Origin: Nemertoderma westbladi
Lineage: Eukaryota > Animalia > Xenacoelomorpha
Length of the DNA stretch: 64,000 bases
NCBI GenBank assembly: GCA_032718475.1
Contig: JAUCBJ010008084.1
Coordinates: forward strand, 7,586 to 71,585
Reading direction: 5' to 3'
The position numbers and the translations under genes are program-made. Positions 1 to 25,200 of this stretch are shown piece by piece. Under the pieces are notes generated by a model. That model saw only the letters and a program-made list of their open reading frames with translations. It was not told the DNA's origin and did no database searches. How positions within the stretch are numbered: the first letter of the stretch is position 1; each line of letters starts with the position of its first letter.

Positions 1-3000
1 CTCCGAGTGCGGTTCCGACAATCAGCCGAGTATGCCCCCCTGATACAATTGGACCGAGACGATGTAGATCTGAGGTGTCCGCAGTCAGACGTAAACCGCA
101 TCACCCTACTGATCGGACTTGATACACCGGAATTACAAATACCAACCGGAGATGTCGCCTGATCCATAAATAAGGATGATGGCTTTTACGCTGAACGAAC
201 AATAATGGGATGGACCCTCTGCGGCATCAAGGAAGAGACTACTGACACCTATACATACCTTCCTAAATGTCAGATTAAAGAAAATGCAACATCCGTGGGT
301 TATTGCTCAGCTACAGACCTCGATGAGGATTTATTTCTTGAGACCGAAAAAACCCAGCAAGAGATGACTAAATACTTTAATCTAGAGACCCAAGAGTTCG
401 CTGAAAAGGACAAAAACCCGTCCGAAGAGGATCGATATTGTATGGACGTCCTGGACCAGGCCACGTTCAACGACGGACACTGGTGTTCACCCATGTTGTG
501 GAAGGACCCAAATAAACCAATGGCAAACAACGCCAACATGGCCCTTAGGCGACTTAAGGGGATTCTACGGCGGCTGAATGACCAACCTGAGATAAAGGAG
601 AAATATAATACCGTAATCCAAGGATATCTCGACGACGGATTAGCAGAAATGGTACCATGGAATGAACTGCAAGGGGGTAAAAGAACATATTATCTTCCAA
701 TCCACTACGTGGTAGAAGCCCGGAAGGGTGGTAAAATCCGAGTAGTTAATGATGCCGCTGCTATGTATCAAGGCGAATCCCTGAATAGTCAGCTTTATAC
801 GGGGCCCAACATCTATAGTACACTCATTGGCGTATTGATCAGGTTCAGGGAAAACTGGATAGCATTCACCTGCGACATCAAAGCCATGTTTCACCAAGTT
901 CGTACGCTACCAAGAGACTCAGATTGTCTACGTATCCTATGGACGGATAAAATACTAACTCAACAGGAGATTAGTCAACTTACAATGAAGGATGTAGACA
1001 TAATGCGTATGATCATCAGGATCTTCGGCGCCAAGGACTCGCCGGTAGCATGTAGTGACATGCTGAAAAAGACGGCAACCATGTGCGAAAACGAATTCCC
1101 TCCTACCGTCATAGAAACCATCCGACGATGCTTCTACGTGGACGACGGATGCGCCGGCGCAGATAATGTGGACGAGGCCTATCGGCTAGCAATGGGGATG
1201 GTGGAATGTTTAAAGAAAGGGGGTTTCCCGCTCGTGAAGTTCAGATCCCACGACAAGAAACTTATGGAAAAATTTCCGGAGGACATCCGACTGGACAACA
1301 ACAAAATGTACTCAGAGGATGTGGAACACCGTGTACTCGGGATTGAATCGGACATAGAATCAGACGAATTTATTTTCAAATATAAACCCCTATCCAAGCC
1401 TATGATGAAAAGGGGATGTTTATCGATAAAAAGCGCAATCTTTGACCCACTAAATTTCATATCTCCGGTAACCTTGGCCGGAATAAACCTGATTAAAGAA
1501 ATGTGGATAGAAGGACTGGGATGGGATGAAGAACTCCCCCCACACCTCAGCGTCAAATGGAGAAAATGGACGGACCAGCTCGAACACCTACATCTTATGC
1601 GGATCCCTCGACCGTTCTTCCTCGACAAACTACCCACCGATATCTTCCAGCTCCATACCTTCTCGGATGCTTCGAATACCGGAATCGGCGTAGTCACCTT
1701 CTTACGAAGACTAAGCAACGACGGAAACGGCGATACGAGTTTTTTATTTTCTAAAGCTAAGACAGTATCCGGGGAATTCGTAGCAACGATTCCAAGACTC
1801 GAGCTACAGGCTGCAGTTTGGGCAGTGCGACAGAACCGCATGGTCATGCGGAACCTACGAATCCCCATCGAATCTCAACACTTCTGGGTCGATTCGAGTA
1901 TCGTTCTCTACTATCTCCACTCTCCATCCCGACGTCACACTACGTTTGTAGCGAACCGAGCCACGGAGATAAAACAGTGTACCGCCCGAGAACAGTCGCA
2001 CCACGTAAACGGGAAAGAAAATCCAGCGGACTTATCAAGCCGAGGCGCCACCCCAAAACAACTCAGTAAAAGTAAACTCTGGCTCACAGGCCCGGAATTC
2101 CTACAGCAGCCACAATTAACATGGAGTACCCGATTCGACCCCGAACTCGATAGCGGAAAATACTCCGAGGATGATAAAGAGATCCGTAAAGTCCATAGAA
2201 GCAACGCAGTGGAAATTTATAGCTGTCTGACTGAGCCTGCAAAGGACTCGGGCAGGCACTATAACGTTGCGACGATCATTCAACCAGTGGCGTCTTTACA
2301 TCTGTTGATCGAGCGAACTTCATCAATGAGACGGCTCATCTACCACATTATAACCCTTCGCAACTTCCTACGGTGGAAAGACAACAAGCCGATAGTTCAA
2401 CGGAGTATACAAGAACTCATTATCGCGGAGAAGTGTATCATTGGATATGTCCAGAGAGAAAGTTTCCCCGATGAGTGGGAACAACTCAGTGCGGGCAAGA
2501 CCTTGAAACCGGATAGCCCAGTCTACCAACTGAGACCAATGATGGGAGAGGACGGACTGATCCGACTGAATACCCGGATGGCAAACGCCCCGGTCGAATA
2601 TGAGGTTAAATACCCGGCGCTTCTGCCCGGAACTTCGACACTAGCCAAGCTATTAATTCAACAATGTCACGAGGAAAACCATCACGCAGGACAAAATTGG
2701 ATTATAGCTAATATAAGACAAAGATATTGGATCACACACATCCAGCCACTGATCCGGAAAGTGTTGAAACGTTGCTTTACCTGCAGAAGATATCTTGCGC
2801 CACCACTCACACAAAAGATGGCCGACTTACCAGCCACCCGTCTACAGCCCGATTCCCCACCGTTCTACGTCACCGGAGTGGACTGTTTCGGACCGTTTAC
2901 GGTCATCGAACGACGATCCAACATCAAATGCTGGGGGGCCATATTTACGTGCCTTAGGTCTAGGGCAATCTACCTAGACATTGTGGTGAACCTTACGCAA

Positions 3001-3840
3001 CACTCATTCATCAACGCTCTGCGTCGGTTCGTGGCAAGCAATGGGACATGTCGTCACATGTATTCCGATAATGGCACAAACTTTGTGGGAGGAGAAAGAG
3101 AACTTAGAGAGGCGATCGAGGGATGGTTTACCGATAACACCGCATCCCAAGTCTGGAAGGAACACTAGATACAGTGGCACTTCCAGACCCCCTTAGCACC
3201 CCATACGAGCGGGGTATGGGAGAAACTGATCGACCTAGTAAAACGATCCATGCGCGTCGCTCTAGGAGACACCCGGGTATCCCATGACACCCTCCGCACA
3301 ACATTCTGCGAGATCACGGCTACCCTGAACAACCGACCCATTGTCCCTATCCGCGACGACCCCACAGAAATGGAGCCCCTTACTCCTAATCACCTACTAG
3401 GGAGACCTAAAACTCATGTTCTCCCGGAGACAATGTTTCCGGATCCCAACGATATCGCGAGACATACAAACTGGAAGAAGTCCCAAGCGTTGGCAGCGCA
3501 TTGGTGGAGAATCTGGGCCCAGGAGTACCTCATAACCCTCCAGACCAGGAGGAAGTGGAACCACACCTACAGGAATGTCGAAGTTGGCGACATGGTACTA
3601 GTAAAAGAAGACCTTAAAGACCGCGTCCACTGGCCTGTGGCGCGAGTCGTGGCAATACAACCGAGCAAAGACGGACTTGCGAGGACTGTGACGATACGAA
3701 CGGCAAAGGGCCACTTCCAACGCCCTATCCAGAAGCTGTGCCTTCTTGAAGGCAATGACAGCGGTGACTCTACGAGAGGTGATAAAATCCCTACTCCGGA
3801 TCCTGCTGCGGACATTGGTGACAATGATAAATGCGTTTAA
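1..3840 (+). pseudogene. pol: BEL/Pao pol (RT, Pao RNase H, integrase) with two in-frame stops
   Basis: One frame from position 1: LLIGLD...MGWTLCG, YLPIHYV, RVVNDAA, DIKAMFHQV, FYVDDG, FSDAS, PRLEL, WVDS, NPADLSSRG, HHAG/CFTC, GVDCFGP, SDNGTNFVG, GVWE, LNNRP, LTPNHLL, RPIQKLCLL. In-frame TGA at 160-162 and TAG at 3166-3168; ORFs 205..3168 and 3250..3840 share this frame. Confidence 0.93.
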
Positions 3841-4536: not shown

Positions 4537-5193
4537 CACAACAAAGATTTCCCAAAGAAGATGATTGAATGTAGTTGGAAATGATGAAAAGAATCAGACA
4601 ACCTTACTATAAACCGAATGATGACGCGTATGATGATGAAAATGTAATGATGCGCACCCTGGTGCTGCGCTTATAACAAATGATGATAGCCGGGGGGCTA
4701 TAACCCCAATGATGATGTGGAAATGTGGAAATAAATGAAATGTGAAATAAATGGTGGAAATAAATGTGTTGAAATATGTTGAAATAAATGAAATGAGATG
4801 AAATAATAATGAGAAATGAAAAAAGACAAAAAAAAGGTATAAAAAAGTCTAAAGAAAAGAATTGGAAAAAAGAAAAGGACATACTGGTTGGATATTAATG
4901 TATAGCTATAGTAACTGTAAATGCTGAATGTATTAGCAATAAGATGATAGATGCCTATATAGCAATGTTATTAATAAACTGAACTAAAAATAAAACTGAA
5001 TTATTCTGCAATCACTATAGTTTCAGACTTTCTGGACTTATAATTAACTGATCTAATTTGTAACGGATATAATCGTAAATATGGACCCAAATATATTATT
5101 GGCGAATTACGTAACACGATAGATCTACTGGAATATTCGCAACCCGGATCCCCTGACTTTGATACAAATTGGAGTACCCTGCTAAATGAGAAC

Positions 5194-7677
5194 GTGCGAG
5201 TCGTTAAATTCACCGGGCGAGAGGGACCGGATTCCAAGAATCTACGAGCCCTCCGGTTAGCCGATGCTAGTACGAGACTGAAAAGAACTCGGAACGCAAA
5301 GGCAACCGGAGGGGACGATTCGTCGTATTGGGAAACGTTCTGGCAAAGCGTCTACAGATCCCGATGTTTGATCTACGACAACGAGGGAAACGCGACGCCC
5401 ACCTCGAAAGCGATTACGTTGGCGAGATGTCAAAGTTTCGTCGACGACAAGAGTACGTACCTCGCCCACTGGGGAAACCTGTCGGAGTGTACGGCGACAC
5501 TTCGAGAGGAACGTATATCGACCATCCAGAATCGCGACGACTACCAAGAAAAGTATGGGGCGAAAGAATATGGTCGATCCTTGGTCGTCGTCCTCGGAAC
5601 CCTGGACGGTTTGGTATTGGTGTGTCGAATATTTCCGACACCCAGACAGGAAGTGCAGGCAGCCGGAGCGATCTGGTTGCTACCTCCGGAAATCCAAAAG
5701 ATCCTCTTCGACTTCGACGTCATTAAAATCGGGTTGGATATAAAGGCGGACGTCCGGAACGACTACGCGAACGCTCCTTCAGGAAGAAACCGACGAGACG
5801 ACCTCAACGCCCTTAGCCATTGCATCGACACTCAAACGCTACTAGCCTGGTTACGATTCGCCGAGTTCATGCGAGGATTCCAAGAGGTGAGACCGACGAA
5901 ATCCGGGATCGGCTACCTCGCTGTGCTAAACGGCGGCATCGACTTCAAACCCCAGAAATTCCGGGATTATAATAAAATATATGGTGGATACCCGGGATTA
6001 GAAATAAAGAGCGAGCGAGAGGGTCGATGGAAGGACGTTGACCGGAAGTGGACGATACACCAAAGGTGGGAGAATCCCGATCGACGGAACTATATCTACG
6101 TCGTTATGGAGTGCTACACCGTCGCTAAGTTTATCTGTAAAACTCTCGATAACCTCATTACGGCGGTTCCTCTTTCCTTCGTCGACTACGACTGGAACGA
6201 GGTTATAAACCACGCATTCAAAGCGGTTGAGAACATCACACCGGGAAAAACGAAAACGCTCGCCGTTATCGATTCCTGGGATGAGAGCGGACCTTACGAT
6301 ATCCCTACGATTACCGATCTTCTCGGTGCGGAGGAGCCTCTGATTTCTTCGGAAGGGGAAGAAATATGGCTACATGAGGGTGTTCTACTCTCCACCCCGA
6401 AGCGACAACTCGAGCCGGAGGCCGCTTACCAACCGGCAGCCAAACGGGTTGCCTCCACCGAACCAATGACGGAAGCGGGCGTTTCCTCACCACTCGGCTT
6501 CGGTAGCCCTGCGAGGGAGTTGGTTACTACCTTCGCGTTAAACGACTTCGGCGATACATGCCAAAGGTTATCCCCGTATCCTTTCCCGGGTGGCGAAGAC
6601 TGGTCGTCGGAGATTCCGAGTACCAGCAATCAACGGACCCGCTCAGCGATATTGGTCGAGAAGGGCCCCAGCGCTGCGCCGACTCCCGACGATCTCCTCG
6701 GAATCCCTCCGTCGAAAACCCCGGCACCTCTTCGCCGACCAGCGGTGGCTACTACACCCTCCGTTCCTCAGGATCCTATGCGACCAACCCGTTGGTACGC
6801 CGAGCAAACTGAATGGATCCACCGCCAGAAACGGTCGTCCGAGTTGAGACCGACGGGACACAAAGAAGGTTATCATAGCGAGGACCTACTACGCAAAAGC
6901 CCAGCCTTCCGCGGGCTACCGACCACCGCGAATATTCAGAAGAGCGACCGGCGACTCGAGTATTACGTCGGCGTCCCGATCCCGATATTTCCCGGTCGAG
7001 AGATGCAGTTGGAGGTGTGCGGCGACTGTGGTTCGGAGCAGTGCCCACGCGGTAGAAGGAATCGGGTTACCGATTCATGCCTCCAGCTCCTCGGGATACT
7101 TTATTGCCCTTACTGCGCGACATCGGGCCACGACGTTTCCATCTGTCCGATCCTATATAACCTCTGCACCACGTGCGGTTTCCGTGGACATTCCGCTAGC
7201 CCCCGCTGCTATATCAACTGTCCTACCAAAGACGTTACCGCTATGGGAAATATGGTCATGTTTGAAACATACGCAAACAGCCACATAAAGACCAAGGTTC
7301 AGAGAAACGCTCGGAATATCGCGCAGGAGATGGCGTGCGGGTACTTCTTCTTCCCGGAACACCTCCACACGTCGGCCACGCTACCTTTCCATTACGTGGA
7401 TCTGTTGCTGAGCGCCGGATTATTCAGCCCATTCGAAGTCATTAGACGCTTATACTCGTATAAAGAGGAGCTCGGTGACGGAGAGTGGTTCCTCGAGGCT
7501 CGCAACTCCGAGTTGGAACGACGAACCGATATGATCCCGTTGCCATCGAAAGGAAGAGCCGCCAGGAGACAAGCCGAAGCGTTGCTCACGATGGACGTTG
7601 ACGCTCCTCTACCAGCTATAGCGATCGACGAGAGCCGACGGGCGAAGAGGCGAAAGACGTATCAGAGAAAGAAATAG
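5194..7677 (+). CDS. Accessory ORF: putative DEDD 3'-5' exonuclease (WRN/EXD2/Mut-7-like), Pro-rich linker and zinc-knuckle cluster
   Basis: Uninterrupted 827 aa; the frame is open from 5044 with no early ATG. Motifs LIYDNEG (ExoI DxE), LPPEIQKIL...KIGLDIKAD (ExoII), IDTQ, SGIGYLA, W...YVVME (ExoIII-like); CGDC...C, CPYCATSGHDVSIC, CTTCGFRGH...C. Confidence 0.8.
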   Translation: MRVVKFTGREGPDSKNLRALRLADASTRLKRTRNAKATGGDDSSYWETFWQSVYRSRCLIYDNEGNATPTSKAITLARCQSFVDDKSTYLAHWGNLSECTATLREERISTIQNRDDYQEKYGAKEYGRSLVVVLGTLDGLVLVCRIFPTPRQEVQAAGAIWLLPPEIQKILFDFDVIKIGLDIKADVRNDYANAPSGRNRRDDLNALSHCIDTQTLLAWLRFAEFMRGFQEVRPTKSGIGYLAVLNGGIDFKPQKFRDYNKIYGGYPGLEIKSEREGRWKDVDRKWTIHQRWENPDRRNYIYVVMECYTVAKFICKTLDNLITAVPLSFVDYDWNEVINHAFKAVENITPGKTKTLAVIDSWDESGPYDIPTITDLLGAEEPLISSEGEEIWLHEGVLLSTPKRQLEPEAAYQPAAKRVASTEPMTEAGVSSPLGFGSPARELVTTFALNDFGDTCQRLSPYPFPGGEDWSSEIPSTSNQRTRSAILVEKGPSAAPTPDDLLGIPPSKTPAPLRRPAVATTPSVPQDPMRPTRWYAEQTEWIHRQKRSSELRPTGHKEGYHSEDLLRKSPAFRGLPTTANIQKSDRRLEYYVGVPIPIFPGREMQLEVCGDCGSEQCPRGRRNRVTDSCLQLLGILYCPYCATSGHDVSICPILYNLCTTCGFRGHSASPRCYINCPTKDVTAMGNMVMFETYANSHIKTKVQRNARNIAQEMACGYFFFPEHLHTSATLPFHYVDLLLSAGLFSPFEVIRRLYSYKEELGDGEWFLEARNSELERRTDMIPLPSKGRAARRQAEALLTMDVDAPLPAIAIDESRRAKRRKTYQRKK

Positions 7678-7842
7678 TGGATCGGGATATTCCAGGAACA
7701 TTTATTGAACATTTATTTTTATACATATATATATAAACTCTAGGCCAAATTAATTAAAACTATGCAATATTAAATTTGGGTTTTTTATATTGGGAATGAC
7801 CTACGCAAACTCAATCTACCGATAGACCTCACGAAGGTCATT

Positions 7843-7850
7843 GGGGGGGA
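7843..7850 (+). other. Polypurine tract of element 1
   Basis: GGGGGGGA followed by C and then TGTT; element 2 has GGGGGGGAG before TGTT. Confidence 0.75.
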
Positions 7851-8259
7851 CTGTTCGCGGTATTTCAACTTTTCATAACGCGAGTTGAATATTTTTTGTA
7901 TTTATTAAAAACGATTATTCCGATATCACTACTGGGTGCGGGACCATGGGTTTTGGGCACATTCTATAAACTGGGGGCGATTTATGGGCGAACTTTGGGG
8001 CGACTTACAGGGAACGGGACTAATTTCATGTTTATAAGGGCCAGGGGGGATGGAAAATTCAAGCAGTATTCAGGTTAGCCTGATTACTATTAGGCCCTGG
8101 CCAACTTCCTGCTGCCTGTAGAGGTGGATTTGGTAACGTGCCAGGCCTAAAGGACAAGGACTGCTCTTAGCAGTCCCTGGCCAACAGCAGTTATTACGAG
8201 CCTGAAAAGGACATCGGAACGCCAGCTGCTTGCGTCAGGGATTTGCGACGGGAAACGAC

Positions 8260-9268
8260 AGCCCCCTTAGCCAAGCCGTGTACTGGTTCTCGATGACCGA
8301 TCCCTTCGGGGTTCGCGAGGGGTGGGACGGACACGCGAAAGGGCGGCCGACTTACAGAGGAAGGGTTTGACAAGGACTGCCCTTAGCGGTCTCTGGTCAA
8401 CAGCAGTTATTACGAGCCTGAAAAGGACATCGGAACGCCGGCTGCTTGTACCAGGGATTTGCGACGGGAACTGACGACAGACCCCTTAGCCAAGCCGTAC
8501 TGGTTCTCGATGATCGTTCCCTTCGGGGTTCGTGAGGGGTGGGACGGACACGCGACGGGGTCGAAAGACAAAGGACTGGACTCTACTGGCCTACCGACTG
8601 TTCGGAGCAGTTTCTCGGCTGCCGAAGCGACTACGAGCCTGAAAGGGACTCGGAAAGCCTAGGTGGTTGGGTTTCTGCGATGAACCGACGGACCCCTAGC
8701 CAAGCCGTACTGGTTCTCGATGATCGAGCCCTTCGGGGTTCGGGAGGGGTGGGACGGACACGCGAACGGGTCCACCGACACGACAGACTCCTAGCCAAGC
8801 CGTACTGGTTCTCGATGACCGATCCCTTCGGGGTTCGAGAGGGGTGGTACGGATACGCGACAGAGTCTACCGACTGGACCGACCCTTAGCCAAGCCGTGC
8901 TGGTTCTCGATGATCGTTCCCTTCGGGGTTCGTGAGGGGTGGGATGGACACGCGACGGGGTCGAAAGACAAAGGACTGGACTCTACTGGCCTACCGACTG
9001 TTCGGAGCAGTTTCTCGGCTGCCGAAGCGACTACGAGCCTTAAAGGGACTCGGAAAGCCTAGGTGGTTGGGTTTCTGCGATGAACCGACGGACCCCTAGC
9101 CAAGCCGTACTGGTTCTCGATGATCGAGCCCTTCGGGGTTCGGGAGGGGTGGGACGGACACGCGAACGGGTCCACCGACACGACAGACTCCTAGCCAAGC
9201 CGTACTGGTTCTCGATGATCGATCCCTTTGGGGTTCGGGAGGGGTGGAACGGACACGCGACAGGGTCG
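8260..9268 (+). repeat. Seven copies of an ~80-nt structured hairpin module inside the LTR, including a 400-bp tandem duplication (8481-8880 / 8881-9270)
   Basis: TAGCCAAGCCGTACTGGTTCTCGATGAN5CCCTTCGGGGTTCGNGAGGGGTGGGACGGACACGCGA, with GATGA at 8292, 8509, 8719, 8814, 8909, 9119 and 9214. Confidence 0.9.
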
Positions 9269-9453
9269 ACCGACACCGACACTACGGCATCAAGACTAGG
9301 ACCGAGGGAAAATCTGGGGAACATTAGTTAGGCTAAAATCTGAGCGAACAGTGGGTAATTAAATAATATACTGTAGGGATTTATATTGTCGTGTATAATT
9401 ATTGTGAATATTTGGTGTATATTGATTTGGGGAAGCCCAAAATTACTCTCAAT

Positions 9454-9501
9454 CAGGATTGTAACAGGATTGTAACAGGATTGTAACAGGATTGTAACAG
9501 G
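9454..9501 (+). repeat. 11-bp minisatellite (CAGGATTGTAA), about 4 copies
   Basis: Direct tandem repeat read from the sequence. Confidence 0.9.
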
Positions 9502-9681
9502 GTTAACTACATTAAAGAATATATCCAACCAATGCAGCTTTTTCTCAACCGCAATCCTGCATCTAAGAAATTTCTCCTTCTCCACAATCAATATCCGGTG
9601 ACTGGCCGGGACTCCGTGGTCTGTAAAGCCCCGCCTCCAGCATCGGCGTTTTTCCCCCCTGGTGTTGGGATAACGGCAACA

Positions 9682-12600
9682 GATAGTTAACACATGTCAC
9701 AAGATTATGCAGGATACTAAAGGAGCAGGTTATAGAGGCGGGTAGATAGAACCAAAACAATAAACGATAGTTAACACATGTTGCAAGATTATGCAGGTTA
9801 GTACAGGAGCAGACTATAGAGGCGGGAAGATAGAATCAAAACAATAAACGATAGTTAACACATGTTACAATATTATGCAGGTTAGTAAAGAAGCAGGCTA
9901 TAGAGGCGGGTAGATAGAACCAAAACAATAAACGATAGTTAACACATGTTACTAGATTATGCAGGTTAGTAAAGCAGCAGGTTATAGAGGCGGGTGGATA
10001 GAACCAAAACATTAAACGATAGTTTAACACATGTTACAAGATTATGCCGGTTAGTAAAGGAGCAGGTTATAGAGGCGGGTAGATAGAACCAAAACAATAA
10101 ACGATAGTTAACACATGTTACAAGATTATGCAGGTTAGTAAAGGAGCAGGTTATAGAGGCGGGTAGATAGAACCAAAACAATAAACGATAGTTAACACAT
10201 GTTACTAGATTATGCAGGTTAGTAAAGCAGCAGGTTATAGAGGCGGGTGGATAGAACCAAAACATTAAACGATAGTTTAACACATGTTACAAGATTATGC
10301 CGGTTAGTAAAGGAGCAGGTTATAGAGGCGGGTAGATAGAACCAAAACAATAAACGATAGTTAACACATGTTACAAGATTATGCAGGTTAGTAAAGGAGC
10401 AGGTTATAGAGGCGGGTAGATAGAACAAAACAGTAAACGATAGTTAACACATGTTACAAGATTATGCAGATTAGTAAAGGAGCAGGTTATAGATGCGGGT
10501 AGATAGAACCAAAACAATAAACGATAGTTAACACATGTTACAAGATTATGCAGGATAGTAAAGGAGCAGACTATAGAGGCGGGAAGATAGAACCAAAACA
10601 TTAAACGATAGTTAACACATGTTACAAGATTATGCAGGTTAGTAAAGGAGCAGGCTATAGAAGAGGGTAGATAGAACCAAAACAATAAACGATAGTTAAC
10701 ACATGTTACAAGATTATGTAGGTTAGTAAAGGAGCAGGTTATAGAGGCGGGTAGATAGAACCAAAACAATAAACGATAGTTAACACATGTTACAAGATTA
10801 TGCAGGTTAGTAAAGGAGCAGGCTATAGAAGAGGGTAGATAGAACCAAAACAATAAACGATAGTTAACACATTTTACAAGCTTATGTAGGTTAGTAAAGG
10901 AGCAGGTTATAGAGGCGGGTAGATAGAACCAAAACAATAAACGATAGTTAACATATGTTACAAGATTATGCAGGTTAGTAAAGGAGCAGGTTACAGAGGC
11001 AGGTACATAGAACCAAAACAATAAACGATAGTTAACACGTGTTACTAGAATATGCAGGTTAGTAAAGGAGCAGGTTATAGAGGCGGGTAGATAGAACGAA
11101 AACAATAAACGATAGTTAACACATGTTACAAGATTATGCAGGATAGTAAAGGAGCAGGTTATAGAGGCGGGTAGATAGAACCAAAACAATAAACGATAGT
11201 TAACACACGTTACAAGATTATGCAGGTTAGTAAAGGAGCAGGTTATAGAGGCGGGTAGATAGAACCAAAACAATAAACGATAGTTAACATATGTTACAAG
11301 ATTATGCAGGTTAGTAAAGGAGCAGGTTACAGAGGCGGGTAGATAGAACCAAAACAATAAACGATAGTTAACACACGTTACAAGATTATGCAGGTTAGTA
11401 AAGGAGCAGGTTATAGAAGAGGGTAGATAGAACCAAAACAATAAACGATAGTTAACACACGTTACAAGATTATGCAGGTTAGTAAAGGAGCAGGTTACAG
11501 AGGCGGGTAGATAGAACCAAAACAATAAACGATAGTTAACACATGTTCCAAGATTATGCAGGATAGTAAAGGAGCAGGTTATAGAGGCGGGTAGATAGAA
11601 TCAAAACAATAAACGATAGTTAACACATGTTACAAGATTATGCAGGTTAGTAAAGCAGCAGGTTATAGAGGCGGGTAGATAGAACCAAAACAATAAACGA
11701 TAGTTAACACATGTTCCAAGATTATGCAGGATAGTAAAGGAGCAGGTTATAGAGGCGGGTAGATAGAACCAAAACATTAAACGATAGTTAACACATGTTC
11801 CAAGATTATGCAGGATAGTAAAGGAGCAGGTTATAGAGGCGGGTAGATAGAACCAAAACAATAAACGATAGTTAACACAGGTTACAAGCTTATGCAGGTT
11901 AGTAAAGGAGCAGGTTATAGAGGCGGGTAGATAGAACCAAAACAATAAACGATAGTTAACATATGTTACAAGATTATGCAGGTTAGTAAAGGAGCAGGTT
12001 ATAGAGGCGGGTAGATAAAACCAAAACAATAAACGATAGTTAACATATGTTACAAGATTATGCAGGTTAGTAAAGGAGCAGGTTACAGAGGCAGGTACAT
12101 AGAACCAAAACAATAAACGATAGTTAACACGTGTTACTAGAATATGCAGGTTAGTAAAGGAGCAGGTTATAGAGGCGGGTAGATAGAACCAAAACAATAA
12201 ACGATAGTTAACACATGTTCCAAGATTATGCAGGATAGTAAAGGAGCAGGTTATAGAGGCGGGTAGATAGAACCAAAACAATAAACGATAGTTAACACAT
12301 GTTACAAGCTTATGCAGGTTAGTAAAGGAGCAGACTATAGAGGCGGGAAGATAGAACCAAAACAATAAACGATAGTTAACACATGTTACAATATTATGCA
12401 GGTTAGTAAAGGAGCAGACTATAGAGGCGGGAAGATAGAATCAAAACAATAAACGATAGTTAACACATGTTGCAAGATTATGCAGGTTAGTAAAGGAGCA
12501 GACTATAGAGGCGGGTAGATAGAACCAAAACAATAAACGATAGTTAACACATGTTACAAGATTATGTAGGTTAGTACAGGAGCAGGTTATAGATGCGGGT

Positions 12601-15600
12601 AGATAGAACCAACATAATAAACGATAGTTAACACATGTTACAAGATTATGCAGGTTAGTAAAGCAGCAGGTTATAGAGGCGGGTGGATAGAACCAAAACA
12701 TTAAACGATAGTTTAACACATGTTACAAGATTATGCCGGTTAGTAAAGGAGCAGGTTATAGAGGCGGGTAGATAGAACCAAAACAATAAAAGATAGTTAA
12801 CACATGTTACAAGATTATGCCGGTTAGTAAAGGAGCAGGTTATAGAGGCGGGTAGATAGAACCAAAACAATAAACGATAGTTAACATATGTTACAAGATT
12901 ATGCAGGTTAGTAAAGGAGCAGGTTATAGAGGCGGGTAGATAGAACCAAAACAATAAACGATAGTTAACACATGTTACAAGATTATGCCGGTTAGTAAAG
13001 GAGCAGGTTATAGAGGCGGGTAGATAGAACCAAAACAATAAACGATAGTTAACACATGTTCCAAGATTATGCAGGATAGTAAAGGAGCAGGTTATAGAAG
13101 AGGGTAGATAGAACCAAAACAATAAACGATAGTTAACACATGTTACAAGATTATGCCGGTTAGTAAAGGAGCAGGTTATAGAGGCGGGTAGATAGAACCA
13201 AAACAATAAACGATAGTTAACACATGTTACAAGATTATGCAGGTTAGTAAAGGAGCAGGTTATAGAGGCGGGTAGATAGAACCAAAACAATAAACGATAG
13301 TTAACACATGTTATAAGATTATGCAGGTTAGTAAAGAAGCAGGCTATAGAGGCGGGTAGATAGAACCAAAACAATAAACGATAGTTAACACATGTTATAA
13401 TATTATGCAGGTTAGTAAAGAAGCAGGCTATAGAGGCGGGTAGATAGAACCAAAACAATAAACGATAGTTAACACATGTTATAAGATTATGCAGGTTAGT
13501 AAAGAAGCAGGCTATAGAGGCGGGTAGATAGAACCAAAACAATAAACGATAGTTAACACATGTTATAAGATTATGCAGGTTAGTAAAGAAGCAGGCTATA
13601 GAGGCGGGTAGATAGAACCAAAACAATAAACGATAGTTAACACATGTTACAAGATTATGTAGGTTAGTAAAGGAGCAGTTATAGAGGTGGGTAGATAGAA
13701 CCAAAACAATAAACGATAGTTAACACATGTTACAAGATTATGTAGGTTAGTAAAGGAGCAGTTATAGAGGTGGGTAGATAGAACCAAAACAATAAACGAT
13801 AGTTAACACATGTTATAAGATTATGCAGGTTAGTAAAGAAGCAGGCTATAGAGGCGGGTAGATAGAACCAAAACAATAAACGATAGTTAACACATGTTAT
13901 AAGATTATGCAGGTTAGTAAAGAAGCAGGCTATAGAGGCGGGTAGATAGAACCAAAACAATAAACGATAGTTAACACATGTTACAAGATTATGCAGGATA
14001 GTAAAGGAGCAGGTTATAGAGGCGGGTAGATAGAACCAAAACAATAAACGATAGTTAACAGATGTTACAAGATTATGCAGGTTAGTAAAGGAGCAGGTTA
14101 TAGAGGCGGGTAGATAGAACCAAAACAATAAACGATAGTTAACACATGTTACAAGATTATGTAGGTTAGTAAAGGAGCAGTTATAGAGGCGGGTAGATAG
14201 AACCAAAACAATAAACGATAGTTGACACATGTTACAAGATTATGCAGGTTAGTAAAGGAGCAGACTATAGAGGCAGGTAGATAGAACCAAAACAATAAAC
14301 GATAGTTAACACATGTTACAAGATTATGCAGGATAGTAAAGGAGCAGGTTATAGAGGCGGGTAGATAGAACCAAAACAGTAAACAATAGTTAACACATGT
14401 TACAAGATTATGCAGGTTAGTAAAGGAGCAGACTATAGAGGCGGGAAGATAGAACCAAAACAATAAACGATAGTTAACACATGTTATAAGATTATGCAGG
14501 TTAGTAAAGAAGCAGGCTATAGAGGCGGGTAGATAGAACCAAAACAATAAACGATAGTTAACACATGTTATAAGATTATGCAGGTTAGTAAAGAAGCAGG
14601 CTATAGAGGCGGGAAGATAGAACCAAAACAATAAACGATAGTTAACACATGTTATAAGATTATGCAGGTTAGTAAAGAAGCAGGCTATAGAGGCGGGTAG
14701 ATAGAACCAAAACAATAAACGATAGTTAACACATGTTATAAGATTATGCAGGTTAGTAAAGGAGCAGGTTATAGAGGCGGGTAGATAGAACCATAACATT
14801 AAACGATAGTTTAACACATGTTACAAGATTATGCCGGTTAGTAAAGGAGCAGGTTATAGAGGCGGGTAGATAGAACCAAAACAATAAACGATAGTTAACA
14901 CATGTTACAAGATTATGCCGGTTAGTAAAGGAGCAGGTTATAGAGGCGGGTAGATAGAACCAAAACAATAAACGATAGTTAACATATGTTACAAGATTAT
15001 GCAGGTTAGTAAAGGAGCAGGTTATAGAGGCGGGTAGATAGAACCAAAACAATAAACGATAGTTAACACATGTTACAAGATTATGCCGGTTAGTAAAGGA
15101 GCAGGTTATAGAGGCGGGTAGATAGAACCAAAACAATAAACGATAGTTAACACATGTTCCAAGATTATGCAGGATAGTAAAGGAGCAGGTTATAGAAGAG
15201 GGTAGATAGAACCAAAACAATAAACGATAGTTTAACACATGTTACAAGATTATGCCGGTTAGTAAAGGAGCAGGTTATAGAGGCGGGTAGATAGAACCAA
15301 AACAATAAACGATAGTTAACACATGTTACAAGATTATGCCGGTTAGTAAAGGAGCAGGTTATAGAGGCGGGTAGATAGAACCAAAACAATAAACGATAGT
15401 TAACATATGTTACAAGATTAAGCAGGTTAGTAAAGGAGCAGGTTATAGAGGCGGGTAGATAGAACCAAAACAATAAACGATAGTTAACACATGTTACAAG
15501 ATTATGCCGGTTAGTAAAGGAGCAGGTTATAGAGGCGGGTAGATAGAACCAAAACAATAAACGATAGTTAACACATGTTCCAAGATTATGCAGGATAGTA

Positions 15601-18462
15601 AAGGAGCAGGTTATAGAAGAGGGTAGATAGAACCAAAACAATAAACGATAGTTAACACATGTTACAAGATTATGCCGGTTAGTAAAGGAGCAGGTTATAG
15701 AGGCGGGTAGATAGAACCAAAACAATAAACGATAGTTAACACATGTTACAAGATTATGCAGGTTAGTAAAGGAGCAGGTTATAGAGGCGGGTAGATAGAA
15801 CCAAAACAATAAACGATAGTTAACACATGTTATAAGATTATGCAGGTTAGTAAAGAAGCAGGCTATAGAGGCGGGTAGATAGAACCAAAACAATAAACGA
15901 TAGTTAACACATGTTATAATATTATGCAGGTTAGTAAAGAAGCAGGCTATAGAGGTGGGTAGATAGAACCAAAACAATAAACGATAGTTAACACATGTTA
16001 TAAGATTATGCAGGTTAGTAAAGAAGCAGGCTATAGAGGCGGGTAGATAGAACCAAAACAATAAACGATAGTTAACACATGTTATAAGATTATGCAGGTT
16101 AGTAAAGAAGCAGGCTATAGAGGCGGGTAGATAGAACCAAAACAATAAACGATAGTTAACACATGTTATAAGATTATGCAGGTTAGTAAAGAAGCAGGCT
16201 ATAGAGGTGTGTAGATAGAACCAAAACAATAAACGATAGTTAACACATGTTACAAGATTATGCAGGATAGTAAAGGAGCAGGTTATAGAGGCGGGTAGAT
16301 AGAACCAAAACAATAAACGATAGTTAACACATGTTACAAGATTATGCAGGTTAGTAAAGGAGCAGGTTATAGAGGCGGGTAGATAGAACCAAAACAATAA
16401 ACGATAGTTAACACATGTTACAAGATTATGTAGGTTAGTAAAGGAGCAGTTATAGAGGCGGGTAGATAGAACCAAAACAATAAACGATAGTTGACACATG
16501 TTACAAGATTATGCAGGTTAGTAAAGGAGCAGACTATAGAGGCAGGTAGATAGAACCAAAACAATAAACGATAGTTAACACATGTTACAAGATTATGCAG
16601 GATAGTAAAGGAGCAGGTTATAGAGGCGGGTAGATAGAACCAAAACAGTAAACAATAGTTAACACATGTTACAAGATTATGCAGGTTAGTAAAGGAGCAG
16701 ACTATAGAGGCGGGAAGATAGAACCAAAACAATAAACGATAGTTAACACATGTTATAAGATTATGCAGGTTAGTAAAGAAGCAGGCTATAGAGGCGGGTA
16801 GATAGAACCAAAACAATAAACGATAGTTAACACATGTTATAAGATTATGCAGGTTAGTAAAGAAGCAGGCTATAGAGGCGGGAAGATAGAACCAAAACAA
16901 TAAACGATAGTTAACACATGTTATAAGATTATGCAGGTTAGTAAAGAAGCAGGCTATAGAGGCGGGTAGATAGAACCAAAACAATAAACGATAGTTAACA
17001 CATGTTATAAGATTATGCAGGTTAGTAAAGGAGCAGGTTATAGAGGCGGGTAGATAGAACCATAACAATAAACGATAGTTAACACATGTTACAAGATTAT
17101 GTAGGTTAGTAAAGGAGCAGTTATAGAGGCGGGTAGATAGAATCAAAACAATAAACGATAGATAACACATGTTACTAGATTATGCAGGTTAGTAAAGGAG
17201 CAGGTTATAGAGGCGGGTAGATAGAACCAAAACAATAAACGATAGTTAACACATGTTACAAGATTATGCAGGTTAGTAAAGGAGCAGGTTATAGATGCGG
17301 GTAGATAGAACCAACATAATAAACGATAGTTAACACATGTTACAAGATTATGCAGGTTAGTAAAGGAGCAGGTTATAGAGGCGGGTAGATAGAACCAAAA
17401 CAATAAACGATAGTTAACACATGTTACAAGATTATGCAGGTTAGTAAAGGAGCAGGTTATAGAGGCGGGTAGATAGAACCAAAACAATAAACGATAGTTA
17501 ACACATGTTACAAGATTATGTAGGTTAGTAAAGGAGCAGTTATAGAGGCGGGTAGATAGAATCAAAACAATAAACGATAGATAACACATGTTACTAGATT
17601 ATGCAGGTTAGTAAAGGAGCAGGTTATAGAGGCGGGTAGATAGAACCAAAACAATAAACGATAGTTAACACATGTTACAAGATTATGCAGGTTAGTAAAG
17701 GAGCAGGTTATAGATGCGGGTAGATAGAACCAACATAATAAACGATAGTTAACACATGTTACAAGATTATGTAGGTTAGTAAAGGAGCAGTTATAGAGGC
17801 GGGTAGATAGAATCAAAACAATAAACGATAGATAACACATGTTACTAGATTATGCAGGTTAGTAAAGGAGCAGGTTATAGATGCGGGTAGATAGAACCAA
17901 CATAATAAACGATAGTTAACACATGTTACAAGATTATGCAGGTTAGTAAAGGAGCAGGATATAGAGGCGGGTAGATAGAACCAAAACAATAAACGATAGT
18001 TAACACATGTTACAAGATTATGCCGGTTATTAAAGGAGCAGGTTATAGAGGCGGGTAGATAGAACCAAAACAATAAACGATAGTTAACCACATGTTACAA
18101 GATTATGCAGGATAGTAAAGGAGCAGGTTATAGAGGCGGGTAGATAGAACCAAAACAATAAACGATAGTTAACACATGTTACAAGATTATGCAGGATAGT
18201 AAAGGAGCAGGTTATAGAGGCGGGTAGATAGAACCAAAACAATAAACAATAGTTAACACATGTTACAATATTATGCAGGTTAGTAAAGGAGCAGGTTATA
18301 GAGGCGGGTAGATAGAACCAAAACAATAAACGATAGTTAACACATGTTACAAGATTATGCAGGTTAGTAAAGGAGCAGGCTATAGAAGAGGGTAGATAGA
18401 ACCAAAACAATAAACGATAGTTAACACATGTTACAAGCTTATGTAGGTTAGTAAAGAAGCAG
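9682..18462. repeat. 84-bp satellite array, left arm (about 105 monomers)
   Basis: Consensus GTTAACACATGTTACAAGATTATGCAGGTTAGTAAAGGAGCAGGTTATAGAGGCGGGTAGATAGAACCAAAACAATAAACGATA, head-to-tail. Confidence 0.98.
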
Positions 18463-18971
18463 TGTTAGCTTATTCAATTCCGCTAACACAAACCCATAAA
18501 GTAAGCCGTTAAGCAATATTGGGGGCCACGAGGTTGATTACCCAATCTCGTGCCACCCCAATAAAATGGGAAGGAGAAACACACAATAAGGGTCAGGGGC
18601 CACACCCCTGACCGAGAGAGAATAGCAGGAGTGAGGGAAACACTCCAAAGGGCGCCAACAGGGATATCAGCCAATGGGAGGGAGGCACCGGCTAGGTACA
18701 GTAACAAGGCCAACCCGTGCAATATAACCAGTTAACGGTAATCAGTTATTTCAGTTATCTCATTGTGTTGGTCGGTTTAGTTAGGTTAGGACCGGAACTT
18801 TAATTACCGTTGCGTAACCACTGTGCAGACACCCTATTCTATATCTATACTATTATACCGGAGGACTTTATACAGCAATCAACAATATCCACCTTTTACA
18901 CACACACGGCGGGAACGCGACGCGTAAATCAAAAACCGGATAAACCGGGATCCTTTGTGGATCCCGTCACA
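18463..18971 (+). repeat. 5' LTR of element 2
   Basis: TGTTAGC...GTCACA; near-identical to 31888-32396 (three substitutions seen by eye). Confidence 0.97.
18721..18757 (+). promoter_or_regulatory. Candidate LTR core promoter (TATA-like AATATAA followed by Inr-like TCAGTT)
   Basis: AATATAA at 18721-18727 and TCAGTT at 18751-18756, about 30 nt apart. Motif match only. Confidence 0.4.
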
Positions 18972-19039
18972 GTAATTAAAGACCAACCTAGTAATTAAAT
19001 CCTAGAACTCCAGCCAGCTACCGACACTCTACCTATGAG

Positions 19040-22000
19040 ATGAGCGACGTTACGCCAACGCGGACCCCGGAGGAAGACCCAACGATTCGGGAGGCCGTGA
19101 CCAGACGGTATAGGCCCACGACGCCGGACCCATCGGTAACGGGTCATCCGGCAGATCAGGATGGAGGGGACCGTCTGGAACCAGAGATCGAGCCGAGAGG
19201 AGCGGGAGCCGAGTTGGGAGAAGGAGAGGGCGAGAGGGACGGAGAAGAAGATGAGTCGACACGGAACTAGGGTCGACGTACCGATGTCGCCGGCCAGCCA
19301 CAGGCCGTGGGCGACGAACGGCCCACCGAAACGGCGACGGTGGGGCCGACGGTACGACGCCGGACCCGGAGAGATGGGGGAGATGTCGGTACCGATGTTG
19401 CCGGCCAGCTACAGGCCGAGGGCGACGGACGGCCCACCGGAACGGCGACGGTGGGGCCACCGGTACGACGTCGGACCCGGAGAGACGGAGGAGAGGTCGG
19501 CGACGAGGACGTCGGGGTTTCTGATCGACTTCGACGGGCCTACAACGCGACCCGGAAGCTACTTAAGGAGGCCAAGGAGGGGGCGAAGATAGATGAGGTA
19601 AAGCTGACAACAGGACTAGGTGAGTTGGATAGACATTTTAATTATCTAATGCGCTTCGGGCAGAGAGAACTGGCCAAGGAGAGAGCGAGAGGGGTTGCAG
19701 AGGAACTGTGTGATTTATGGCGGTGTAGGGGTATGCAACCTAGTGCAGTGTATGTAGGGCCATACTTAGTCGATGCCCAGGGTATAAAATCAGTGGGTTG
19801 GAGGAGACATGAGGAGGGCGAATCCGAGGTTGACCGCGAGGATTCGATCTCGTCGATCGGAGGAAGTTCTGGGAAGAGGGGGAAAGTTAGTAGGTCGGGA
19901 AGGCGGAGGGAATCCGTCGTAACCGATAAGTCTGCTACATCCTCCGTAAAAGAAAGACGGGTGAGAGAGATAAATGCCACGTACCATCTCGACCTGATTG
20001 CGCAAGGTCAGAGAGAGTTATGTAGATGGTTAGAGGAGGGGAGAATGCAACTAGAGAAGGAAATGGTACTGATTAGAGAAACCGGAGAGAGGGCCGAAAG
20101 GGCCGCGAAAAGCCTTAGAGAGTGTGAGGAAATAGAGAGGAGGGAACAAGAGGAGCGTGAGGCGAGACGGGAAAGTGAACGCAAAGAGCGTGAGGCGGAA
20201 CGCAAGGAGCGTGAGACGAGAGAGAACAATGAACGCAAGGAACGCGAGGCGAGAGAGGAAAATGAACGCAAGGAACATGAGGCGAGGGAGGAAAGTGAGC
20301 GCAAAGAGCGTGAGGCGAGGCGAAGGGAGGGAGCTAGGAGAGAGGCGGAATTGGCCGAACAGAACGCACGGGAGAGTCGGGAGAGAATGGCAAGAGAGGT
20401 GCGTGAGCGAAAAGAATTGGAAAGACAGCAAGGCGAGCTTATAGAGTACAAAACTAGACGTATGCGCGAACTGGAACTAGCGTGGATGGGGGCGTCTGAG
20501 AGCGGGGCTGACTCGAAGATTTTCGAGGAGCCAAGGGCCGTGGATATGTTTATTAATACCCCATTTACAGGGACCGCACGACAGACCCGAAATTGGTGTG
20601 ACCGTACGGGCCGGGGGGGTAATAATAATACTACAGTAGACGACGTTAATATTAATGGTACCGTATTGGATAATCCTAACCAAGCATATATTGCAGGAAA
20701 TACTTTGCCTGGTAGTAGTGATTTGAATTTAAACACAAATAATCTAAATAATAATTTCAATTTAAACGTGCAAAATAATCCGAATAATAATTTAAATTTA
20801 GAAAATAATGATAACTCAAATAATTTAAATAATGATCCAAGCCCGAATTTACAAAATAATTCAAATAATGTAGTCGCGCAAAATAATCAAAATGATTCTA
20901 TTTCGAACGAACAAAATAATTCCGTTTCTAACACAGGTGCTATTAATGCGAACGCGTCGGACGTGTATAACCCGACAGACGCCGGCCTGGTAGGCCACGT
21001 AGTTAGTAGGCAGGAGGTGGCGGGGTTGAGTCGACCCGACGGCGGCCTAGTAGGCCACGTAGTTAGTAGGCAGGAGGTGGCGGGGTTGAGTCGAGCCGAC
21101 GGCGGCCTGGTAGGCCACGTAGTTAGTAGGCAGGGGGTGGCGGGGTTGAGCCAACCCGGAGTAGGCCCGATAGGCCAAGTAGTGGTGGAGAGAGAGGCGG
21201 GGGTAAGCGAACCCAGCCGCAGTAGAAATATTGTGTCGACTGGAGAGGGGTGTAGAAGAGAAGTTAGTGGCAAGTGGGGGGGGGGGGCTACAGGAGCCCC
21301 GCAACGAGAAGTTAGCGACGAGTGGGGGGGGGCTACAGGAGCCCCACAACGAGAAGTTGGTGGCGAGGGGGGGGGCAGAGAATGTCCCACAGGCGTCGGC
21401 GGATAATGCGCGGGCCGAATCAGGTAAACCGCAACACCCGGCGACGGAGAGTAATAGGGGGATTGCGAGTATCCCCAGCGGCGTGCGATCGAGCAGAGAG
21501 AGGCAGGTTGATGTCGCGAGAGGGCGGACGAAGCGTCGAGCCCGATCAGAAGAGGGAAGAAGAACAGTGGAGTTTAACCGGGAGGTCGACGAGAGATCTC
21601 ATGAGCGGGAATACTGCACTGAAAGGAGAAGTAGTAGAAGAAGTATCGCCGCGAATGACAGGAGAGCGAGGACGGATAGCGAGCCGTCGGTAGTTGAGAT
21701 GGAAAGAGAGAGTCGGTGGGGTCGAACCTCGGGAGATTGCCGTCGTCCCGGAGAGACGCAACCTGACGAGACGCGTTACGCGTCGAGAGAGGGGTACACG
21801 ATGTACCAGCACGAAGACGAGAGTAGTAGAGGGGGTCGAAGAGAAACTTTCCGACGGGATATACCTACAGATCGAGAGTACGGTAGCCGCGGGGAGGATT
21901 GTTCGAGAAGAATAAACTTCGATCCCGAGCAACACATACAGACTGTAGGACATACTGTAGGCCTTACTGCACATACCATAGGCCATGCTGACAGGAATAA

Positions 22001-22280
22001 TATAGGCGATAGGATAGCGCGGACAATGGAATTAAACCCGGATGTCGCGGAGTACATACCGGCAGGTAGGCCAGAAGTTGATAGGCCTATACCGGTACCA
22101 GTACAGCAGTATGACTACAGCATGCAAGGACATAACATATACCCAGGGGAGGGGGGAATTATTGCGGATAGATGCATGGGCCCCAATATATTAACATCAA
22201 CCCCAGTACCAAACATACCGGTGGGGGGGGGGGACAGGGTGACATTCCCCCATCGCAATATCAACAATATACCCCGATAG
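19040..22280 (+). pseudogene. gag: Long low-complexity N-terminal extension of gag, interrupted
   Basis: ATG at 19040; in-frame TAG at 19268-19270 then ORF 19307..21406 in the same frame. Overlapping ORFs 21231..22280 and 22172..27571 join across poly-G runs (about 21276-21375 and 22223-22233). Contains an E/R coiled-coil, an Asn-rich tract, and ~117-, 60- and ~40-bp internal repeats. Confidence 0.65.
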
Positions 22281-25200
22281 GAGCAAGAACAACGAGACCC
22301 TTGGATGGAAATAGGTCATGTGACACAGAAATATGGAGGGGACTGCTACCCCCAATGATATACCCAAGCCAAAGAAAGGCAGAAAATAGGTCGGGTGGAC
22401 CACACCCAACAGGAGAAACTATACAACATCCATCGAATCCATTGGAAGCGCAGGCGATGGGGATGGCCATGTTGATCGATGCATTAAAAACAAGGATCGA
22501 ATTACCACCCGTGGAACCATTAAAATTCGATGGGAGTAGGCCGGAAGAATATCTCCAGTTTCGGCGTATGTATAGTAACGAAATACTAACAAAGAACTTG
22601 ACGCAAGCGGAGTGCCTAAAGTATCTGCAAGTATACACAGGAAGCCCAGCATACGACATCGTGAGGCAATATCAGGGCATAGAGGGCGGCTTCACGACGG
22701 CATGGTGGGCACTGGACAGGGAATACGGGCACCCGGCCAAGATCATCAGGCAGACCCTGAGAGGCATAACATCGGGTGGCCTACAGGATAACCCCGTTAG
22801 CATTAAGACATTCGCGAACAAGGTCGAGAAGGAGCTAATCGTGTTAAAGACGCTAGACGCGCCATACGAACTCAACGCGTCCAACAACATCACCACGATA
22901 GCGCAGGCACTACCGATGTGGTTGCGCAACAAGTGGAGGAAAATCGCTTTCTCCACTCGAGATAGGAAGGGTGCGGAACCGGGTTTAGAAGAAATGTCAA
23001 GCTTCTTAAACTACGAAGCTGAACTAATAACCGACCCAGTCTATAGCGAAGATAGCCTGGGAAAGGGATCGAAGACAGATTACCATAGACCGAAACCAGA
23101 GCACAATACGTCAAATGCATTACCGAAGCTCAGGCAATCACTGCCATATGCAGCGACGCAGGGGACTGCAAGTCCACAGGTAGCCGAAGGAAAGACCACA
23201 CCATGGAACGGACAGGGGAACAATAACAATACGAATAAATATAATCCCAGTACGTCCAGTAGGCCGAACCCAAACAATAAGAATAGTAGGGACTTTGGTA
23301 CAAACGCAGCTGCGATACGCAATGCACTGTATAAGGACGGCTACGACCCAAAGAGCAAATGCCAGCTACATACAAATGCGCTTCATCAAACCATGAACTG
23401 CAGGTACTGGCAAGCGCTACCCAGGGAAGATCAGGTAGAATACGCGGCGAGGAATGAGATCTGCTCGCGATGTGTGATGAGTGGACATAGAGCTAGGCAA
23501 TGCAAGGAGACGCCGGTCAAGTTCGGTCAAAGGAAAGGCCAAACGATGGCAACGAGCACAGTAGGGGCGAGGAAGACAGGAACGGTGCTACTTGGGGTAG
23601 TACCTGTGCGAGTGATTGGAGAAGGCAATCGATCAGTAACAACACTAATGCTGGTCGATAGTGGAGCTGCCTTCACATTAGTCGAGGATTGGGTGGCCGA
23701 AGAAATAGGATTGAGAACGAGGCCAAGTAGAATGGCGGTAACAACCATCTCCAGTAAAGATGAGGTCCTGGAGATGAGAACCGGACGGTGCACCATCGCA
23801 GCAATAGCACCAGGATGCGACTATGGGGCGAGCATCGACCCCATCCAAGTGATAGAGTCAATAAACATCAATGCCAGACGGCCAACCAACATCGAGGTCG
23901 AACAATATACATTTCTGGATGATATCGACTTCTCAATCCCAGAGGTGGACATTAGGAAGGTATCCATCATAGTAGGAATGGACTGCCCAACAGCCCACGA
24001 AAGAATGCAAATGGTCTTCGGCGAAGACAAGCAGTGTGACCCGGTGGCGATACTGACACCATTCGGGTGGACGCTGAGTGGCCCAATCAAGAGCAAGATA
24101 CCATTTAGGATGTCGGAGACATCAGGATGCATGTTCGCGGGAACTATGCAGGAAATGGGTGACGAGAGAGCAGAGGAGCAGCTTAAGAGACTGCTCAGAC
24201 AGGATTTTGAAGGATTAAAGGAGATCGGGGTCGGGACCTCGGTAGAAGACAAGCAGGCTCTACAGAGCGTAGAGGAGTCTATGAGGTGTGATGAGGGGCG
24301 GTATACCATAGGGATGGTATGGAAGCTACCAAAGCTACCGCTACCCGATAATAGAGGGATGGTACTCACGAGGCTTCGTAAGTTGAAGCAGACACTAAAA
24401 CGGAGCCCCGAGAAGAATGAGTACATCCACAGAATGATTAAGAAGTACGTCGAGAAAGGATGGGCCGTGGAGTTACCGGTCGACAAACCAAACACGGATA
24501 GGACGTATTACCTACCACTCCACGTGGCTTTAGATCCGAAGAAAGGTAAACTGCGGATGGTAGTTGACGCATCGGCAAAGACCAACGGAAAATGCTTAAA
24601 CGACTACCTACTAGAAGGTCCGAACATATACAACTCAGGGATAGAGGTCCTACTTAGATTTAGAAATGGGAAACACGCCTCCACGTGTGACATAGAAGGC
24701 ATGTTCAACCAAGTCCGTGTAACGGAGGAAGATAGCGACAGTCAACGCTTCTTATGGTACAACGGTGATGAAGAACCGTCAATAATACCGACGTACAAGA
24801 TGGTAGTACAGAACATGGGAGCCAAGTCGTCTTCATTCACGACGACTATGGCAGTAAGAGATACAGTGAAGGGGAAGGAGGATAGATACAGCACTAGGGC
24901 CGTCGATATGATTCGACGCGGCTTCTACGTAGACGATGGAATGGAGTCTGGAAATACGGTTAAGGAGATACTGGACACAGTGCGCGAGGTTCGCGACATC
25001 CTAAAAGGCTCCGGCTTTAACCTGACCAAATTCCAATCCAGTTCGAAGGAATTTATCAAGGCGATAGGGGACGAGAGACCAGAATCGACTATGGATAATC
25101 CCACAACGTCCAAAGGACAGGACATGGCGAGCAAGAGGACAGAATCTCAACAGAAGGCACTGGGAATCGTGTGGAACAGAGAGACAGATGAACTGGAGTA

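Follow-up and report, generated by a model that had tools for sequence, protein, structure and literature searches.

What a tandem array of RNA hairpins does inside an LTR, and whether it is a selected element at all, is the question raised by this locus. The window analyzed, a 64-kb stretch of animal genomic DNA, contains two BEL/Pao retrotransposons adjoining an 84-bp satellite of ~200 copies (9682-18467 and 32397-40167). The array belongs to element 1, which has the Peptidase_A17, DUF5641, and integrase regions, the polypurine tract, and the TG...CA LTR of a BEL/Pao element (Table 1) and which was probably inserted into the satellite. This copy is damaged: pol is interrupted by a single in-frame stop (3166-3168), and the accessory ORF has no early Met, the first in-frame Met being only at residue 276.

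The LTR begins with TGTTCGC at 7852, after the G-run at 7843-7850, and the inverse GCGAACA lies at 9344-9350, bearing out an earlier description (the sequence-only reading) that had placed the hairpins within an LTR. An alternative right end is 9681, just before the satellite starts at 9682. The 9-mer GTAATTAAA at 9355-9363, four bases past 9350, is shared with the second element, where it follows the 5' LTR (18972-18980), and this supports 9350 as the LTR end. The module array is inside the LTR whichever right end holds. The stretch 9351-9681 is AT-rich, includes an 11-bp repeat (4.4 copies), ends in GGCAACA at the satellite border, and has no counterpart elsewhere in the window. Where the LTR starts, summed contig depth, which is not a copy number, increased by a factor of two to three in runs X1 (possibly the source sample) and X3. 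Every part of the LTR is included in the genomic RNA, at one or both of its ends, so the refutation envisaged earlier, that the region might be untranscribed, is inapplicable in principle.

Table 1. Positions of the features of element 1 in the window
Feature	Position	Strand	Description
BEL/Pao pol (RT, RNase H region, integrase)	163-3840	+	Pfam Peptidase_A17, Integrase_H2C2, DUF5641; translation
Accessory ORF	5044-7677	+	877 codons stop to stop; DEDD-exonuclease-like (Egl/EXD2-like) region and three Cys/His knuckles
Stable hairpin inside accessory ORF	5249-5313	+	z -6.06; 0/200 shuffles as stable
Polypurine tract (G-run)	7843-7850	+	Sequence
3' LTR, TGTTCGC...GCGAACA	7852-9350	+	Inverted terminal 7-mers; pol and accessory ORF upstream
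TATA-like box	7965-7970	+	Only TATA[AT]A match in LTR; putative promoter
Hairpin D	8092-8150	+	5' arm start in common with B1
Module B1	8163-8253	+	Long hairpin, basal UA/GA loop, two 3' bulges, apical loop-E-like motif, GAAA tetraloop
Module A1	8260-8347	+	K-turn bulge at 8292; 3b·3n C·C
Module B2	8379-8469	+	Second B-type hairpin
Module A2	8479-8564	+	Bulge at 8509; U·U
Module C1	8592-8688	+	B-type tip; different lower stem, inverted UA/GA loop
Module A3	8689-8774	+	Bulge at 8719; U·G
Module A4	8784-8869	+	Bulge at 8814; C·A
Module A5	8879-8964	+	Bulge at 8909; U·U; duplicate of A2
Module C2	8992-9088	+	Duplicate of C1; tetraloop changed to UAAA
Module A6	9089-9174	+	Bulge at 9119; U·G; identical to A3
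Module A7	9184-9269	+	Bulge at 9214; U·G; UUUG loop

The sequence-only reading had recognized seven hairpin modules, which we label A1 to A7. All seven are present inside the LTR, and the rest of the window has no further occurrence of their anchor motifs. Each named sub-part was found (the UA/GA loop, GC/GC, CCGU/ACGG, UCUC/GGGG, the GAU bulge, GA/GA, and cUUCGg), and the described outer-stem variants between copies, the variable pair beside the GA/AG tandem, and the UUUG loop of the last copy were all confirmed. A custom model search, proposed earlier as a check, returned the seven module A sites and nothing else in 120 kb. What had been missed are four interleaved GAAA-type hairpins (B1, B2, C1, and C2). 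Besides the A modules, the region 8260-9268 includes B2, C1, and C2, making the array a mixed one; B1 and D lie immediately upstream, and the order along the LTR is D, B1, A1, B2, A2, C1, A3, A4, A5, C2, A6, A7. As a whole, the array in this BEL/Pao LTR comprises twelve long hairpins, which fall into three or four types. A basal UA/GA loop is found in every A and B module, and the B and C tips consist of a GAAA-capped stem above an (A)NUA/GAA loop.

Rfam produced no match at gathering thresholds in the window or in five related loci, with one chance match (E 9.7) within 7600-9700, and a tRNA search found none. The A-module pattern had three matches in viral sequences, none with the remaining module parts, and no matches in metagenomes. 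Alignment of pol against viral contigs gave 75 stretches, none of which was confirmed.

The copies are not independent of one another, since a block of ~400 bp is duplicated (8483-8882 versus 8883-9283, 96.5% identical) and A3 and A6 are identical. Three A copies stem from this duplication, and a second near-exact duplication in the LTR spans 216 bp. A related contig carries a single A and a single B module, from which it follows that seven copies are not required and that copy number varies. These duplications and this contig are what would be expected if one A and one B module were functional and the additional copies had arisen neutrally, through slippage or template switching in the LTR; the loop damage already seen in young duplicates (UUUG and UAAA) points the same way. 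However, the differences between paralogous copies avoid breaking pairs, which suggests constraint on more than one copy, and we regard neutral multiplication as decidedly unlikely.

The evidence for selection on structure is moderate. The modules had been described as covarying, and this was not upheld: a double change was found in 1 of 20 pairs, a value reached by 187 of 500 shuffles, and in RNAalifold, another of the proposed checks, 2 of 26 pairs covaried with a covariation term of +0.35. With the register set by hand, about four double changes appeared, each of them in the outer stem. The stability of single modules is ordinary (z -0.48, -0.34, and -1.59 for A1-A3), as is the mean folding z-score across the array (~0 in 70-nt windows). 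In the 65-nt A core, by contrast with other columns (8 of 31), only 1 of 34 paired or GA columns varies (Fisher p = 0.011; p = 0.05 under a more lenient test), and the change in that sole column keeps a G·U pair. Six of the eight differences between B1 and B2 fall at paired sites, and all six keep plus-strand pairing (p about 0.06); two of them form one double change, and four would break pairing on the minus strand. The plus strand folds better than the minus strand in 13 of 13 segments, a result that GU asymmetry partly builds in. Because the structures were derived from the same sequences, these observations give modest support for constraint and are not proof. The proposal of a selected RNA element thus keeps the backing of pair-preserving substitutions and loses that of significant covariation. 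On this comparison of copies the array is a real and probably selected RNA element.

Enhancer repeats are common in LTRs, and the unremarkable folding z-scores would suit DNA-level enhancer multimers whose folds are incidental. This explanation does not account for substitutions that are GU-permissive and strand-specific, double changes in stems, UUCG and GAAA caps, or a location downstream of the TATA-like box. We consider it very improbable.

The identity of module A as a kink turn (k-turn) was supported by its sequence. All seven copies have GAU as a 3-nt bulge, a GA/GA tandem, and C-G at positions -1 and 4. None has a Watson-Crick 3b·3n pair, and five of the seven belong to the ion-folding class, with C at 3b or G at 3n. 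Under the k-turn rules set out in PMC4382518 and PMC8191799, copies with C·C, C·A, or U·G are predicted to fold in ions, which applies to five of the seven A modules. A1 matches the Actinomyces-1 k-turn at -1b:-1n, 3b:3n, and 4b:4n (C:G, C:C, C:G), a k-turn for which folding was predicted and, according to the excerpted text of PMC8191799, confirmed. A strict k-turn descriptor recovered these seven sites and only one other in ~95 kb of strand scanned.

However, a more stable register competes. Energy models favor a register shifted by two bases, in which the 3' GA pairs with UC, by 3.1-6.9 kcal/mol in six copies; A4 has a different best fold, 7.0 kcal/mol below the k-turn register. The UCUC/GGGG register is the predicted ground state in none of the seven copies. 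The -1b:-1n C-G pair, possible in all seven, has a predicted probability of 0.00-0.01, and shifted-register pairs reach 0.70-0.99 in six of seven. The RNAalifold consensus fold is the shifted register as well, and ordinary pairing in that register explains the conserved 3' GA. Module A might on these grounds be a hairpin with a 5-6-nt GAUGA bulge that is bound single-stranded. Such a reading requires the full k-turn signature to have arisen by coincidence, against a background of about one per 95 kb, and the energies that favor it come from a nearest-neighbor model with no term for k-turns or protein binding. We judge it rather unlikely; it is compatible with the best explanation for modules B and C. 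Since the energy models prefer the shifted register, the kink would need protein or ions, and since the model lacks the relevant terms, protein binding may be what produces the kink, as in the L7Ae leader treated in the accessible text of PMC6298567. The earlier claim of a k-turn signature accordingly stands for the textbook sequence rules and is qualified by the competing fold, and we lean slightly toward the k-turn as the selected state of module A.

Several other motifs were rejected. Module C is not a k-turn, its GAUGA being without a paired NC helix, and a SECIS element was rejected for want of an apical AAR. Box C/D snoRNAs have RUGAUGA and CUGA boxes with a stem II; here GAUGA is followed by YCG, the partner strand is CGNGA, and there is no Rfam match. 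The likeness to twister extends only to the motif, again with no Rfam match. The GA/GA tandem is common to hammerheads and k-turns, which lends self-cleaving ribozymes some initial appeal. The hammerhead core (CUGANGA, GAAA, and UH) is broken at three positions: GAUGA is preceded by CUC, the 3' strand is GAGG rather than GAAA, and GAAA follows the outer stem in one of seven copies. With the core broken and no Rfam match to E = 10, the earlier suggestion of an undescribed ribozyme found no backing. Cleavage within the LTR would moreover destroy the genomic RNA. We consider this reading extremely improbable.

A further copy of the B/C tip lies in the accessory ORF. The tip of the stable hairpin inside the accessory ORF (5266-5297) has an AGUA/GAA loop and a GAAA tetraloop and is homologous to the B and C tips by self-BLAST and alignment. 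A tip model search of the window gave five sites (the ORF hairpin, B1, B2, C1, and C2) and no further strong match. The sarcin-ricin or loop E motif is AGUA opposite GAA. This sequence is exact in the ORF hairpin, appears as AUUA or ACUA in B and C, and is reduced to UA/GA in A; in sequence, the (A)NUA/GAA and UA/GA loops resemble the loop E/sarcin-ricin motif. Contigs in runs X1, X3, and X4 (three of four runs, from three studies) join an ORF-type tip to LTR B arms, the joints having short sides of 20-27 letters aligned at 80% likeness; the likeness to the ORF hairpin is thus still closer in other LTR copies. In the ORF hairpin itself, positions 5249-5260 of the 5' arm form a weak splice-acceptor-like stretch.

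The accessory protein has 7 relatives among 1.84 billion representatives, with which it shares the three Cys/His knuckles and an N-terminal region. Its ESM features point to DNA_pol_A_exo1, and in a profile search the best PDB matches were Egalitarian and EXD2 (E 0.0016-0.0088), followed by nucleocapsid and Lin28 knuckles. As a single sequence it gave nothing significant against Pfam and PDB, and a word-based homolog search gave 0 of 7999. The structure model is poor (pLDDT 43; single-sequence fold pLDDT 33), and a Foldseek search with it gave no match at E<=0.001. The evidence for an Egalitarian/EXD-like nuclease fold, drawn from profile comparison, is weak. Active DEDDy exonucleases carry an ExoI DxE and additional acidic residues; here the DxE is seen in P0122, P0125, and the neighboring element and is not evident in P0001, for which the structure model is poor. 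The P0122-P0129 family combines a DEDD-like domain, three knuckles, and a conserved C-terminal block and lies beside a BEL/Pao pol in three of five loci.

Five of 58 candidate related loci were examined; three have a BEL/Pao pol, and one has both LTRs. Neither the A, B, and C modules nor a repeated k-turn was found in any of the five or in the neighboring element. Related elements thus carry the same accessory family without the array, and so the protein family does not need the array, which on this sequence comparison is family-specific. Locus L006 is a full BEL/Pao element with 407-bp LTRs (3-409 and 10458-10864), a knuckle accessory ORF, a normal TGG primer site, and no k-turn array. In L005 (8178-11290) an accessory ORF lies between LTR-like repeats similar to the L006 ones; no pol was found in the locus, and this is possibly a non-autonomous element that keeps only the accessory gene.

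The second element in the window is a complete BEL/Pao element (18461-32396) with 511-bp LTRs that are 99.4% identical and a 5-bp target duplication, inserted into the 84-bp satellite. Its accessory ORF, of the same family, is in pieces. Hairpins that fold stably occur in the 3' UTR and the LTR (z -3.5 and -4.7), and the element has no A, B, or C modules. Degenerate 44-51-bp tandem repeats lie between its pol and accessory ORF (27720-28382). There is no TGG primer site after its 5' LTR, where the shared 9-mer hints at a non-canonical primer site.

The position of the array bears on its function. The only TATA-like box in the LTR lies upstream of the array, and a scan of the LTR found no AATAAA, so the array may be in the RNA leader. 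A 5' leader element could control translation by internal entry, shunting, or repression by a k-turn-binding protein: a short ORF starts at an AUG within each k-turn, and L7Ae-switched leaders exist (PMC6298567, accessible text). The modules nonetheless look independent rather than parts of one folded domain, there is no Rfam IRES match, and leader control seems improbable.

Alternatively, the array might protect the RNA, its kinked hairpins blocking exonucleases or its non-canonical pairs preventing dicing. The extra-stable tetraloops, the lack of any helix longer than ~10 bp, and the exonuclease-like accessory domain next door suit this idea, and PMC5408684, in its accessible portion, suggests 3'-end processing for such ORFs. 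Yet no U-rich ENE loop, pseudoknot, or Rfam stability element was seen, and protection leaves the hairpin copy inside the accessory ORF unexplained. We think it decidedly unlikely.

Our own proposal, offered tentatively and by analogy, is that the array would be a multivalent protein-binding handle on the genomic RNA for export or germline delivery, working like Rex/RxRE. The accessory protein, with its nuclease-like fold and three knuckles, would bind the loop-E-like GAAA hairpin, both in the message that encodes it and in the LTR copies. Module A would be drawn out of the shifted register by Mg2+ or by a host protein of the L7Ae family (15.5K/Snu13), and its folding into the k-turn would bend and compact the array. 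Tandem duplication during replication would tune avidity, and the coated RNA would then be exported or transported, as with Rex/RxRE or CERV. From the sequences, the link to the accessory protein appears better supported for B and C than for the k-turn modules.

The closest parallels are HTLV Rex/RxRE and HERV-K Rec/RcRE, which, in the available text of PMC3504254 and PMC11379458, likewise have a structured RNA element within the LTR, as the array is here, and an accessory gene downstream of pol, here the proposed partner. RxRE is one ~250-nt stem-loop in these accounts, whereas the array consists of independent hairpins over ~1.2 kb; unlike Rex, the proposed partner is a large nuclease-fold/knuckle protein whose export role is assigned by analogy. 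Cer1 is, like element 1, an invertebrate LTR retrotransposon with an extra Cys-rich protein, CERV, which is needed for export of Cer1 genomic RNA (PMC10309623). However, Cer1 is a Ty3/gypsy element, CERV has other domains, and no RNA element is named in the accessible part of that paper. Standard k-turns (U4, box C/D, SAM-I, and Actinomyces-1, as covered in the excerpted PMC4382518 and PMC8191799) share with module A the 3-nt bulge, the tandem GA/AG, C-G at -1 and 4, and a variable non-Watson-Crick 3b·3n. Unlike them, module A is present as seven tandem LTR copies, has a competing shifted register, and lacks a box C/D stem II.

Egl-BicD localization signals, including the I-factor ILS, are also stem-loops in more than one copy per transcript. 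Following the accessible portion of PMC13186709, they bend by 19-26 degrees and have 3' bulges, spaced U-A pairs, and a pair of helices of 6 bp or more, and Egl needs two bent stem-loops per transcript, a precedent for multivalency. Module B resembles them in that its lower helix is long and three pairs separate its two 3' bulges, and the accessory domain is weakly Egl-like. Module A differs in its 4-bp GC-rich helices and 5' bulge, and the upper helix of B is 4 bp; neither module was accepted as an Egl-BicD signal.

Bdelloid (rotifer) LTR retrotransposons of the Juno/Vesta lineages have a DEDDy ORF3, like the accessory gene an exonuclease-like extra ORF after pol; in its accessible portion, PMC5408684 mentions neither a triple knuckle nor a BEL/Pao host nor an LTR hairpin array. 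Nor does the available text of the BEL/Pao survey PMC3118150 mention such an array. In BC1/ID RNA a GA-tandem motif in retroposed RNA serves as a transport code; the motif occurs singly there, in a SINE-type RNA, and hnRNP A2 binds it (PMC4033767, partial text). A k-turn array in an LTR was not found in the literature searched, which comprised titles and abstracts.

A more complete form of the proposal, speculative and unlikely to hold in every part, is a transport system built by the element itself: an operator hairpin would have been copied from an Egalitarian-like accessory gene into the LTR, multiplied, and interleaved with switchable k-turns that recruit host 15.5K/Snu13, and the outcome would be a tunable multivalent scaffold. 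At this locus both the RNA modules, which are small and testable, and a candidate partner are available. If the proposal is true, it would give the first example of a k-turn array in an LTR, and a DEDD/knuckle accessory protein of a transposon would for the first time have a defined RNA target. It would extend k-turns to LTR elements and provide a natural k-turn array in competition with an alternative register. It bears on how unspliced RNA of invertebrate LTR elements leaves the nucleus and enters germ cells, and on the function of the exonuclease-like extra ORFs of retrotransposons.
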